From IMG/VR virus record IMGVR_UViG_3300045974_000166, positions 32,001 through 96,000 of that record: a stretch of 64,000 bases of DNA, one strand, 5' to 3'. The stretch is from a virus. The position numbers and the translations under genes are program-made. The notes beneath the pieces were generated by a model that did no database searches, was not told the DNA's origin, and saw only the letters and a program-made list of their open reading frames with translations. Positions 60,638-64,000 of this stretch are shown here, one piece after another; position 1 is the first letter of the stretch; each line of letters begins with the position of its first letter.

Positions 60638-60645
60638 ATTAAATA
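60638..60645 (+). promoter_or_regulatory. putative late promoter (ATTAAATA)
   Basis: Intergenic, upstream of the 60679 operon. Confidence 0.65.
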
Positions 60646-60678
60646 ATGATATTGCAACACATTAATCGATGAACTAAT

Positions 60679-61749
60679 ATGACTAAGACTTTAAGAGAAC
60701 GGTATCTAAATAATGAGATTCTTTTGATAGGGGAAATTGTAAAAGATCAGACTACAGGTGAAGACGTAAAAATTCTTGACCGCGGTTCAAATTACGTTAC
60801 AGTTGAATCATCGGCGGGAATCCAGAAAAAATGGATACAAGATGTCATTTCCGAATCGGAACCGGAAACTAAAGTCGAGCACATAGTAGAGGAAGATTTT
60901 ACCCTTCTTGAATCTGGCCAAGTTAAACTTTTTGGGTTTGAAACTCAAAATTTCTGTGTAGAACTCTCGTCATTCATCATTGAACAATTTAAAGAATTCG
61001 ACGATTTATACTCCAAGCATCAGATCATCAAACTATTGGATTATGCTCTTACCGAATCTAATATTGACAAGAAGTACGAAAATCTAGAAAAGATTAGTGC
61101 CTTCTATAAAAATAATTCAATCCAAGAACCTCTAATTGTCGAAGGCCTTAAGAATTCAATTGAACGTCTTCGTTTGGCACAGATCGTAGCTTCTATTGCC
61201 GAAATTGATACTAAACCAAGCCCATACGAAACCGTAAAGGATGCTGTTACTGCTCTTAGAAAGAAGTATACAGATCCTAAGCAGTGGCAAGTATTATGGC
61301 CATTTTTCCGTATGGTAGATGCCTCGGGCATCACTGGTATTCTTCAGATGCTTCCTTTCAAACCAACAGCACAGACACCGGTAGGCCAATCATCTAGAGT
61401 AACAGAAGAAATTCTTTCTATGATGGAAGAAAATGTTGATGAATTATTTGAGTCTCTTTGCGTTGAAGATATAATGGAAACATACTCTGCAGATGAACTA
61501 GTTGAGGCATGGGCAGTCAAAGGTTTAGATGTACTTACTCCTGCCGTAAATACTTCCGTCCTATCTGATAGAACTAAGAAACTTGCCGATACTATGATTG
61601 CACGGAGAATGTTCCAAAAATCAATGCCAGACTTAACTTCAGATGATAAGAACACATTTGGTGAAACAGTTAACCGCCGCAAACTATTGGTAGCACAACT
61701 TGCACAAAAACTACTACCAAAAGTTAAGGCTCTACAGGAAACACCATGA
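60679..61749 (+). CDS. hypothetical protein (N-terminal SH3-like LRERY...ILDRGSNYV domain)
   Basis: 356 aa; ATGA-coupled to the downstream gene. Confidence 0.7.
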   Translation: MTKTLRERYLNNEILLIGEIVKDQTTGEDVKILDRGSNYVTVESSAGIQKKWIQDVISESEPETKVEHIVEEDFTLLESGQVKLFGFETQNFCVELSSFIIEQFKEFDDLYSKHQIIKLLDYALTESNIDKKYENLEKISAFYKNNSIQEPLIVEGLKNSIERLRLAQIVASIAEIDTKPSPYETVKDAVTALRKKYTDPKQWQVLWPFFRMVDASGITGILQMLPFKPTAQTPVGQSSRVTEEILSMMEENVDELFESLCVEDIMETYSADELVEAWAVKGLDVLTPAVNTSVLSDRTKKLADTMIARRMFQKSMPDLTSDDKNTFGETVNRRKLLVAQLAQKLLPKVKALQETP

Positions 61750-62897
61750 AAACATTTCTAGAATATTTAGCAGAGCAAGCAGAGTCAGATGGTAAACTCA
61801 AACATCTCCAGCACCTAGAAGATCTACATGTCGACCATGGCCAATCTGGCTTTAAGCACGCAGCTGGTGAACTTGACCGCGTAAAGAAACATGTAGAATC
61901 TGGTAAGACATCCTCTTCCCTAACTCAAAAGATTGATGGTTCTCCAAGTATTGTTATGGGTCATCACCCACAGTCTGGTAAGTATTTTGTCGCATCTAAA
62001 TCTGCATTCAATAAAACTCCAAAGCTTAACTATACTCATGCCGACATTGAAAAGAACCACGGCCATGCACCCGGTCTAGTGGAGAAACTTAAATCTGCTC
62101 TTGACCACGGCCATAAGATTCTACCAAAGCATGGTGTGTTTCAAGGTGACGTGCTTCACTCCGGTACAGATGTAAAGCATGGCAAGACTACTGCTACATT
62201 CAAACCTAACACGATCGAATATACAGCCCATGGTGCCGAAGCTGATAAGGTGAAGAAATCTAAGTTTGGTGTAGCTCTGCACACAGAATATCATGGCAAG
62301 ACTCTAGATGATATGCATGCCGAGCCTATTAAAGATCACTCTAAGTTTTCTCACCACGAAGATGTCTATTCGCCTTCTGTTGCATATAAGTCTGCCGGTA
62401 AGAAAATGTCTCCAGATGATAACCAAAAATTTCATGAGCATATAGCTGCTGCAAAGACCGCACACGAAAAGACTAACTACTCTCATATTTCTCCACACAA
62501 AGAACATATTAACACTTATATCAATCAAACAGTGAGATCTGGTGAAAAGCCAACTCACGAAGGATATGTAAAGCACTTAGAAGCGATTAAGACAAAAGCC
62601 GTAGGGTCTGTTAAGACAGAGAAAGCTAAAGCAGCTAAGGCTGATCTACATCAGTCTACAATCAATGCTGCGCAGGGTGATCATAAAGAATCTATTACTC
62701 ATGCTTTAAAATCTCACCATCATCTTCAGGCTGCCAAAGATCTGCTCGTGAAGCACATGGACCATTCAGCCGAAGGCCTTGAGGCAAAAATTAATGGTAA
62801 GAAAGTTGGCCCAGAAGGCTATGTGTCTAACCACGCAGGTAAATCAACAAAATTCGTTAACCGTGCCGAGTTCTCTCGTGCAAATTTTCAGAGATAA
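61746..62897 (+). CDS. DUF6267-like, ligase-fold protein; putative internal head protein
   Basis: HLQHLED, KIDGSPS (KxDG) and GPEGYV (EGxV); N-terminus MKTFLEYLAE; about 40 His in 383 aa. Confidence 0.7.
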   Translation: MKTFLEYLAEQAESDGKLKHLQHLEDLHVDHGQSGFKHAAGELDRVKKHVESGKTSSSLTQKIDGSPSIVMGHHPQSGKYFVASKSAFNKTPKLNYTHADIEKNHGHAPGLVEKLKSALDHGHKILPKHGVFQGDVLHSGTDVKHGKTTATFKPNTIEYTAHGAEADKVKKSKFGVALHTEYHGKTLDDMHAEPIKDHSKFSHHEDVYSPSVAYKSAGKKMSPDDNQKFHEHIAAAKTAHEKTNYSHISPHKEHINTYINQTVRSGEKPTHEGYVKHLEAIKTKAVGSVKTEKAKAAKADLHQSTINAAQGDHKESITHALKSHHHLQAAKDLLVKHMDHSAEGLEAKINGKKVGPEGYVSNHAGKSTKFVNRAEFSRANFQR

Positions 62898-62899
62898 AA

Positions 62900-63868
62900 A
62901 TGATAACATTCAAAGAATACCTATCGGAAGTAGCAATCAGTGGCACTGGCCTGAATGGCGAAAGACATTTAGCTAAATATGTGACACCACATCTAGGATC
63001 TTCTAACTTTACACATACTCTGGCAAGAAATCATGGTGATCTAGAACCGGGTTCTAAAGTTAAATTGCACAAAGTAGAAAACATAAAAGGTGTTACTCAT
63101 GTCCACGCAGAAGATGAATCTGGCCACAAACATGTAATACCAGTTACTAAACTACATAAACCTGGTACTCAAAAAGAAAATGCCGGCCATAAGTATGAAA
63201 ATGATTTTATCACTCATCTTAAGAAACATGGTGTTATGCCAGAACATTTGTCTGGCGCAGGGTCCACCGCAGGTACCGATTTCCAAGTAGAACATAGAAA
63301 ACTCAAAAGGAACCATGCTGGTAAAGTTCAAGGTAGTATGTTGAATGGTGAAACTAAGAATGGTGTGACTGGTGCTATGGGTCAGATCACAATTCACCAT
63401 GATCCTAAAAAGGGTGGCTGGCATATTCCAGATGATGCCCGTGCTAAGAGACCTAAGTATGCCGCCGAAGTTGAAAAAGCCGGTGTTTTGAAGCATATGA
63501 ATAAACACTATAACCCAGATAAGCATGACATTAAAACTACCGATTCGGGTAGAGCTCAATCTGTATACATTAAACATCCAAATCTAGAACCAGGCCATGC
63601 TTATCTGCAAGATCACCACGTGCATATCCTACAAGTTGGTGGTCATGGTACGTACCGTGTTGGCGATAAAGACCACACAGGCCATGGACTTCCAGCAATC
63701 TCCGGTAAAGGTAAATGGACTGTCCGTGAGAAACAAGCAGGAAATAAGAAGGCACGTACAGTTATGTTCCAACCAGATGGTAAAGCCGGTCTTGACAAAT
63801 CTCATGTAGATCTAGATAAACCAGATCATATCGAAGCATTCAAGAAGACTTTGGGAATTACTAAATGA
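62900..63868 (+). CDS. PD-(D/E)xK-like nuclease; putative internal head protein
   Basis: G..YE...GTDF...GETK core; N-terminus MITFKEYLSE; about 32 His in 322 aa. Confidence 0.55.
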   Translation: MITFKEYLSEVAISGTGLNGERHLAKYVTPHLGSSNFTHTLARNHGDLEPGSKVKLHKVENIKGVTHVHAEDESGHKHVIPVTKLHKPGTQKENAGHKYENDFITHLKKHGVMPEHLSGAGSTAGTDFQVEHRKLKRNHAGKVQGSMLNGETKNGVTGAMGQITIHHDPKKGGWHIPDDARAKRPKYAAEVEKAGVLKHMNKHYNPDKHDIKTTDSGRAQSVYIKHPNLEPGHAYLQDHHVHILQVGGHGTYRVGDKDHTGHGLPAISGKGKWTVREKQAGNKKARTVMFQPDGKAGLDKSHVDLDKPDHIEAFKKTLGITK

Positions 63869-64000
63869 AAACCACAGTGATGGCATTTGGCAGGATGTCT
63901 CCAGTTACGGCTGGCCACGCCAAGTTAGTACAGAAGGTGAAGGATACTGCTGCTGAGCATAAGGCAGATCACAAGATCATTCTGTCTCATACTCAAGATG
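63865..64000 (+). CDS. HIGH-family nucleotidyltransferase (cytidyltransferase-like), truncated by the window end
   Basis: Read by hand: MKTTVMAFGRMSPVTAGHAKLV; ATGA-coupled. Confidence 0.75.
   Translation, partial: MKTTVMAFGRMSPVTAGHAKLVQKVKDTAAEHKADHKIILSHTQD

Follow-up and report, generated by a model that had tools for sequence, protein, structure and literature searches.

Results

A gene block with leader-bearing members between gp16 and gp18

The stretch analysed here, hereafter the window, comprises 64,000 nucleotides (bases 32001-96000) of the virus record IMGVR_UViG_3300045974_000166, which spans 192,097 bp, is judged complete and stems from a T4-like myovirus. Close to its 3' end begins a block of 11 genes lying between gp16 and gp18 (window 60679 to genome 102999), neighbouring members of which share 1-4 nt or lie 2-10 nt apart, in agreement with the tight coupling downstream of gp16 described in an earlier note on this DNA. 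Three of these genes are our main subject: a 383-aa protein of the family DUF6267, with a predicted RNA-ligase-type fold and a helical insert (plus strand, 61746..62897); a 322-aa nuclease-like protein consisting of a leader, an SH3/Tudor-like region (residues 18-90) and a PD-(D/E)xK domain (residues 94-320; plus strand, 62900..63868); and a HIGH-motif nucleotidyltransferase, 260 aa in full, whose 5' part lies in the window (plus strand, 63865..64000) and which continues past it to L004 6648.

The DUF6267 and nuclease-like proteins start with MKTFLEYLAE (plus strand, 61746..61775) and MITFKEYLSE (plus strand, 62900..62929), respectively, both of which resemble the capsid-targeting sequence (CTS) of T4, MKTYQEFIAE (PMC8442874). 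In the T4 CTS, residues 4 and 7 are required for targeting and residues 8 and 10 for processing (PMC9026906); in the leaders these positions are filled by aromatic residues (4 and 7), Leu (8) and Glu (10), and the match of MKTFLEYLAE to the CTS comprises 6/10 identical residues, with conservative exchanges at 4, 7 and 8. A six-frame scan of the 192-kb genome for M..[FYW]..[FYW][LIVM].E with 50 aa or more behind it returned three occurrences, all of them gene starts within the block. The third begins a 135-aa protein (MKTFKEYLTE, 8.9% His, L004 9282-9689) that yielded no family match; the TTG annotated as its start, 24 nt further upstream, is probably not the true one.

The leader is likewise kept in relatives: DUF6267 homologues retain it as MxxFxxFLxE down to 48% identity, most nuclease homologues start with a peptide of the type MxxFKxF(L/I)xE, and in related contigs it is carried by homologues of all three proteins, the nucleotidyltransferase included. 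Both AlphaFold models show it as disordered. Its 30-nt coding stretch is near-identical between the nuclease-like gene and the third leader gene, the flanks of which are unrelated. Moreover, the four cyanophage DUF6267 homologues that we inspected lack a leader and open directly with residues of the conserved core (either MSKNTHLEHLED or MAKNTHLEHLED), which is why we regard the leader as an add-on. The comparison thus supports a T4-CTS-like leader that would act as a portable tag: the key positions of T4 are kept, it is confined to this block within the genome, and it is conserved on homologues, as the likeness pointed out in the earlier note would have it.

A homologue of the gp21 protease is encoded at genome 111668-112117 (PF03420, E 8e-36), and the L-S-E|A of gp23 aligns with the T4 maturation site L-T-E|A, where T4 gp23 chains of 521 and 456 residues in the PDB are consistent with a propeptide of 65 residues. 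The predicted mature forms of the leader-bearing proteins would have a pI of 9.35-9.65. The four His-rich proteins of the block contain fewer internal [LIV]xE sites than expected (3 against 9.9, P ~0.006), and an adjoining 729-aa protein contains more (22 against 10.4).

A His content of about 10% had been reported for the two proteins along with their start peptides, and our recount gave the same figures, namely 10.4% (40/383) for the DUF6267 protein and 9.9% (32/322) for the nuclease-like protein. No other open frame of at least 150 aa (132 in total) reaches these values, the genome median being 1.5%. The nucleotidyltransferase of this phage has 8.8% His, and cyanophage DUF6267 homologues, where counted, have 1.0-1.7%.

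The DUF6267 protein resembles RNA ligases in its predicted fold

PF19782 (DUF6267) is the sole Pfam match of the 383-aa protein (E 6e-85), and homologues are numerous, with more than 3,000 in metagenomes and others in 468 phage records, mostly of cyanomyoviruses. The family was not named in the literature that we searched, where 'cytitidyltransferase' as well as capsid targeting combined with cyanophage likewise returned nothing relevant. AlphaFold modelling on the basis of 26 homologues gave a structure (pLDDT 88.7, pTM 0.84; residues 1-15 disordered) that, when compared with ~48,000 solved chains by VIA-align, came closest to the RNA ligases NgrRnl (5cot, Z 8.6), REL1 (7.5), Rnl2 (7.4), Trl1 (7.4) and Rnl1 (7.2), followed by DNA ligases, with ligases taking 12/12 of the top structural matches. 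Foldseek matches were weak (E 0.02) and fell on ligases as well, and in a viral fold library named RNA ligases ranked directly after the family's own members.

Invariant throughout the 26 homologues are K62, D64, G65, Q133-G-D135, E357, G358, V360, K369 and R373. They include motif I (K62-I-D-G) and motif IV (E357-G-Y-V), and the remaining ligase motifs have candidates in the proper order, that is Q133-G-D135 for III, N155/Y159 for IIIa and K369...R373 for V, with a helical insert of ~120 residues (about 223-340) ahead of motif IV. Hence the KxDG and EGxV motifs of the ligase superfamily, first noticed by eye, proved invariant and are placed by structure prediction in a ligase-type fold. The protein is probably a divergent member of the lysine-nucleotidylating ligase superfamily whose modelled fold is nearest to that of RNA ligases.

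The 322-aa protein resembles a restriction-type nuclease

Searches with the 322-aa protein gave no matches in Pfam, PHROG or NCBIfam, none by tblastn against 50,697 phage records, and no nuclease in a profile search of its family against the PDB; a full scan of 1.8 billion representatives yielded 97 relatives. Its AlphaFold model (pLDDT 91.0) shows an SH3/Tudor-like barrel at residues 18-90, and residues 94-320 align with the entire HhaI endonuclease (6uke, Z 10.7, rmsd 3.6 over 178 residues), far ahead of all other rows, of which the next PD-(D/E)xK enzymes were Hjc (6.1) and I-Ssp6803I (5.5). HhaI was also ranked first by Foldseek (probability 0.97). Among 30 homologues of 29-53% identity, G96, E100, E151 and K153 are invariant and D127 is at least 90% conserved, so that the E...D...ExK core suspected previously is upheld both by conservation and by the HhaI-like predicted fold. 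A PD-(D/E)xK endonuclease with an SH3-like N-terminal domain is therefore a well supported assignment by modelling, and we regard the predicted folds of the ligase-like and nuclease-like proteins as very probably correct. The resemblance does not extend to a prediction of HhaI's specificity: HhaI and the phage protein share 14% identity, and in the phage genome GCGC shows no avoidance but over-representation.

Two candidates for distant relatives of this protein, cyanophage T4-GC_533 and a 450-aa protein occupying the same slot of locus L006, were rejected at an hhalign probability of 0.2% each. As a separate observation on sequence usage, GTGCAC is the most avoided 6-bp palindrome of the whole genome (3 against 23 expected), which may reflect a restriction system of the host.

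The nucleotidyltransferase is the conserved partner of DUF6267

The open frame starting at 63865 contains the (H/T)xGH motif after its first strand as AFGRMSPVTAGH, in line with the HIGH-type motif FGR..P.T.GH that had been read from it. TIGR00125 covers residues 5-31, with 24.0 against a cut-off of 27.7, and TIGR01526 nadR matches the HIGH region weakly (E 0.004, with 16 of the 341 bits required); Pfam gave nothing for the full-length protein at E 0.05, and a single-sequence PDB search returned noise only. It does match phrog_3041 'cytidyltransferase' (E 2e-60), its Atlas neighbours are viral PF01467 clusters, and the homologue in L012 clears the PF01467 threshold (23.5 against 21). In relatives the enzyme is 584-642 aa long and carries a P-loop kinase-like domain (GGPGSGKD) after the nucleotidyltransferase domain. 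Three such loci (L012 5413-7167, L027 8975-10903 and L006 12536-14359) encode a tagged nucleotidyltransferase with a kinase-like domain and a long low-complexity tail; neither this domain nor the tail was found in the genome studied here. The nucleotidyltransferase is putatively NMNAT/NadR-like and is a conserved, often fused partner of DUF6267 that is tagged in relatives.

DUF6267, nuclease and nucleotidyltransferase genes are adjacent in 28/31 viral contigs with a nuclease homologue, many of which are closely related, and one additional contig has the nuclease followed by DUF6267. Co-occurrence of the three genes, which the earlier note had named as a point to check, is thus observed. The wider and older association is the pair of DUF6267 and nucleotidyltransferase, adjacent in cyanomyoviruses and fused in S-PM2 and several uncultured phages, where BFVD forms reach 591-915 aa and the phrog_455 profile covers both parts. 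In the old record of S-PM2 (AJ630128, L001 5986-7765), one part of DUF6267 is p138 and the other forms the first half of the 'Cytitidyltransferase' p139, and the newer record and BFVD give a single fused protein of 591 aa. The slot beside the pair is taken by unrelated proteins in other lineages. The nuclease is limited to one sub-lineage, and since its family is small and has no match in phage records, only DUF6267 and the nucleotidyltransferase form a widely conserved core.

Leader-bearing nucleotidyltransferase relatives are reported from cyanophage virions

Virion mass spectrometry detected a cytidylyltransferase in the Synechococcus phages S-SZBM1 (PMC9146016) and S-CREM2 (PMC10665884). 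The S-CREM2 study, in which the enzyme is termed an NMNAT homologue, remarks that cyanophage virions often contain enzymes of this sort, and it already proposes carriage of cyanophage cytidylyltransferases in the virion (PMC10665884). On fetching the genes, we found both proteins to be leader-bearing, with the starts MRFRQFIIE in S-SZBM1 and MKNFSSFLTE in S-CREM2. The DUF6267 homologue of S-SZBM1, which adjoins the cytidylyltransferase, has no leader and 1.0% His, and it is not named in the text or tables of PMC9146016. A tagged protein that is detected next to an untagged neighbour that is not named is the pattern expected if the leader drives packaging.

Genomic setting

Upstream of the block lie genes for the neck protein gp14, the tail sheath stabiliser gp15 and the small terminase gp16, and downstream, past the end of the window, those for the sheath gp18, tube gp19, portal gp20, gp21 protease, gp22 scaffold and gp23. 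The large terminase gp17 is encoded at genome 19267-20868, ~72 kb from gp16 and not in the gp16-gp18 interval, which is occupied by the block. Among cultured phages, the capsid protein is most similar to that of the freshwater Synechococcus phage BUCT-ZZ01 (61% identity), with marine cyanomyoviruses next (~51%); a megablast comparison of the region with 50,697 phage records gave no match.

The earlier note had further placed the genes under a late promoter. The canonical T4 late promoter TATAAATA has no copy in the 16-kb region, but a variant 9-mer, ATTAAATAA, lies on the plus strand at 60638..60646, 32 nt upstream of the first gene, and the same late-promoter-like motif also precedes gp18, gp22 and further late genes. 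It has 14 copies in the genome, 11 of them on the plus strand, and 5 in the window against 1.9 expected. The candidate promoter of the block is the variant motif and not the canonical form.

The first gene, ORF356 (plus strand, 60679..61749), encodes an acidic protein (pI 4.9) that is not His-rich. Its N-terminal ~60 aa (window 60679-60870; see also L010 8390-9478) resemble the C-terminal domain of cyanophage cytidylyltransferases, as seen from matches to phrog_395 (positions 214-276, E 6e-6) and S-SZBM1_140 (E 7e-8), and a homologue follows gp17 in phage BUCT-ZZ01 (E 2e-39); Pfam gave no match, and an Atlas search none that was usable. Short beta-rich stretches like this N-terminus recur, by eye, in the 729-aa protein and in a further protein of 749 aa. 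These two proteins (L004 6659-8848 and 9686-11935; genome 96658-98847 and 99685-101934) are made of basic modules with acidic linkers between them (EEVLDE, EELDE, QIDEL and the like, 5-6 per protein), all of which fit [LIV]-x-E, and they look like polyproteins processed by the head protease. A ferritin/Dps-like protein is encoded inside the block as well (L004 8845-9285, PF00210 E 2e-14), with a homologue 3' of the nucleotidyltransferase in the related contig L038.

Other observations concern the head gene region. Two small His-rich proteins flank the gp21 gene (L008 6287-6619 and 7268-7594) and share the N-terminus MN..(L/I)K.I.EAY..ML, which is possibly a second kind of head leader. At the gp67/gp68 position lies a 629-aa protein (L008 2099-3988) with an acidic N-terminus and linkers of the [LIV]xE type, which has the DELSKKTLKSYIKKA module in common with the gp22 scaffold.

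Discussion

Our analysis leads us to propose, with a probability of roughly 60%, that the block encodes internal head cargo enzymes that are loaded by their leader, trimmed by gp21 and delivered together with the DNA. Packaging is likely because of the leader and its conservation, the presence of gp21 and of the gp23 site, and the virion proteomes of relatives. According to this model, the DUF6267 protein, the nuclease-like protein and the third, 135-aa protein would be made late, and the 10-residue N-terminal leader would direct their entry into the prohead's scaffolding core, where a gp21-type prohead protease would cut after Glu10. The trimmed, basic and His-rich cargo would then stay among the packaged DNA and exit with it at infection. 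There, it might perhaps serve nucleic-acid end processing at the onset of infection, by breaking, healing or sealing RNA or DNA ends, a role compatible with the nuclease, with the kinase of relatives and with the predicted ligase fold. Rather improbable is the idea of an injected kit of aquatic T4-like phages, composed of an RNA-ligase-type enzyme, a nucleotidyltransferase and, in this lineage, a restriction-type nuclease, which would act within the first seconds on ends or cofactors, and whose ~10% His would keep the enzymes bound and silent until release. Such a kit would, for instance, seal or cap ends of phage DNA or RNA or undo RNA-cleaving defences, and at the same time cut host nucleic acid.

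Several points weigh against internal head cargo. Cleavage and injection are carried over from T4 only, and the virion detections come from relatives; the latter concern two phages, with 2-3 peptides as their basis, and the S-CREM2 study concedes that contamination is possible (PMC10665884). The nucleotidyltransferase of this very phage starts with MKTTVMAFGRM and bears no leader, and the association of His richness with the leader is confounded by phylogeny. A stored active endonuclease would also have to be kept silent: no 4-bp palindrome is strongly avoided in the genome, where we looked for genes of hmC or 7-deazaguanine modification (TGT/DpdA, QueC, thymidylate-synthase-like) and found none. 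Finally, the ligase assignment derives from the modelled fold, with Z values of 7-8.6, at which chance matches also occur, together with the motifs, among which motif V has K...R in place of KxK and motif III reads QGD. Pfam, NCBIfam and a profile search of PDB sequences returned no ligase-family sequence match, for which reason we call the protein ligase-like in fold and probable chemistry instead of naming it a member of an Rnl family.

Could the leader be something other than a head signal? A shared recombination or translation-start cassette, fused to otherwise ordinary cytoplasmic late enzymes, would account for the 30-nt leader stretch that is near-identical in two of the three genes between differing flanks, as for a mobile cassette, and for a nucleotidyltransferase that functions here with no leader at all. 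We nevertheless think this very unlikely, as the peptide pattern is kept across homologues of 30-50% identity in which codons and residues varied, exactly the T4 positions for targeting and cleavage are retained, and leader-bearing homologues are found in two virion proteomes. The chemistry, too, can be read differently. The order of a HIGH nucleotidyltransferase followed by a P-loop kinase in relatives is the domain order of NadR, and together with the weak TIGR01526 nadR match (E 0.004) and the designation as NMNAT homologue in the cyanophage literature (PMC10665884) it suggests NadR/NMNAT-like NAD+ salvage, in which DUF6267 would use the product, or the pair would restore NAD+ against NAD+-depleting host defences, the nuclease being unrelated cargo. 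However, the score of the NMNAT model is far under its threshold (16 bits against 341), the nearest folds of DUF6267 are ATP-dependent RNA ligases and not the NAD+-dependent LigA, and the kinase domain is absent from this genome. We regard NAD+ salvage as a quite improbable explanation of the whole set, although a NadR-like role of the nucleotidyltransferase itself is a serious alternative.

Another possibility is that all three enzymes work in one pre-packaged pathway, in which the nuclease cuts, the nucleotidyltransferase, with the kinase in relatives, prepares the ends or a cofactor, and the ligase-like protein seals, acting before any transcription on ends or nicks of the phage genome or on host RNA or DNA. 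The conserved adjacency of the trio, the DUF6267-nucleotidyltransferase fusions and the fact that all three proteins are tagged in relatives would be expected from it, and the P-loop kinase-like domain of relatives (GGPGSGKD, with weak AAA_33 and Zeta_toxin matches) recalls the pairs of RNA ligase and polynucleotide kinase that are also among the viral fold matches. Yet the slot of the nuclease is elsewhere filled by unrelated proteins, such as the 450-aa protein of L006 and T4-GC_533, for neither of which homology to it was found, this genome is devoid of the kinase domain, no HIGH-motif enzyme is known in end healing, and nothing tested points to any substrate. We consider a single pathway rather unlikely, and none of our results demonstrates the joint cut, nucleotidylate and ligate sequence put forward in the earlier note; the nucleotidyltransferase here is untagged and the nuclease family is small (97 representatives).

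If the block indeed encodes internal head cargo, head loading by leader and gp21 would reach far beyond the T-even phages and carry real enzymes, not just small inhibitors. The leader could then be used as a simple sequence marker to predict injected proteins in uncultured T4-like phages, and it would explain the recurrent cytidylyltransferases of cyanophage virion proteomes, as those detected carry it. Likewise, DUF6267 would gain a testable biochemical identity as a ligase-type lysine nucleotidyltransferase.

The proposed cargo is reminiscent of the T4 internal proteins IPI, IPII, IPIII and Alt, which are loaded by way of the CTS and trimmed by the prohead protease gp21 and have a leader with aromatic residues at 4 and 7, Leu or Ile at 8 and Glu at 10, where several unrelated cargoes share the leader, the predicted mature cargo is basic, and both a gp21 homologue and the gp23 L-x-E|A site are present. 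In contrast to these, the cargo discussed here would comprise ligase- and nuclease-fold enzymes of 34-41 kDa with ~10% His, and not small anti-restriction proteins, in a phage that is only distantly related to T4 and in which packaging of this cargo is a prediction. With the cyanomyovirus 'cytitidyltransferase' T4-GC_190 and the DUF6267 protein T4-GC_71, the block shares the families, their adjacency and sometimes their fusion. Unlike here, the cyanomyovirus pair follows MazG in the replication module and is not accompanied by a HhaI-like nuclease, and the four DUF6267 homologues inspected are leaderless and, where counted, low in His. The 322-aa family resembles R.HhaI (6uke), Hjc and I-Ssp6803I in its core at residues 94-320 and has kept E...D...ExK, but differs from R.HhaI, to which it is 14% identical, by an extra SH3/Tudor-like domain and the leader, and no partner methyltransferase was seen beside its gene. 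Similarly, DUF6267 is comparable to the ATP-dependent RNA ligases (Naegleria NgrRnl/Rnl5, T4 Rnl2, T. brucei REL1, T4 Rnl1 and the ligase domain of fungal Trl1) in its predicted fold (Z 7.2-8.6 over 175-203 residues) and in the invariant KxDG and EGxV, and its candidate motifs would follow the order I-III-IIIa-IV-V. It departs from them in giving no ligase match at the sequence level, in its ~120-residue helical insert, in a motif V that reads K...R, and in having neither a flanking OB domain nor C-terminal domains of the Rnl1 or Rnl2 type, its partner being instead a HIGH-motif nucleotidyltransferase to which it is often fused.

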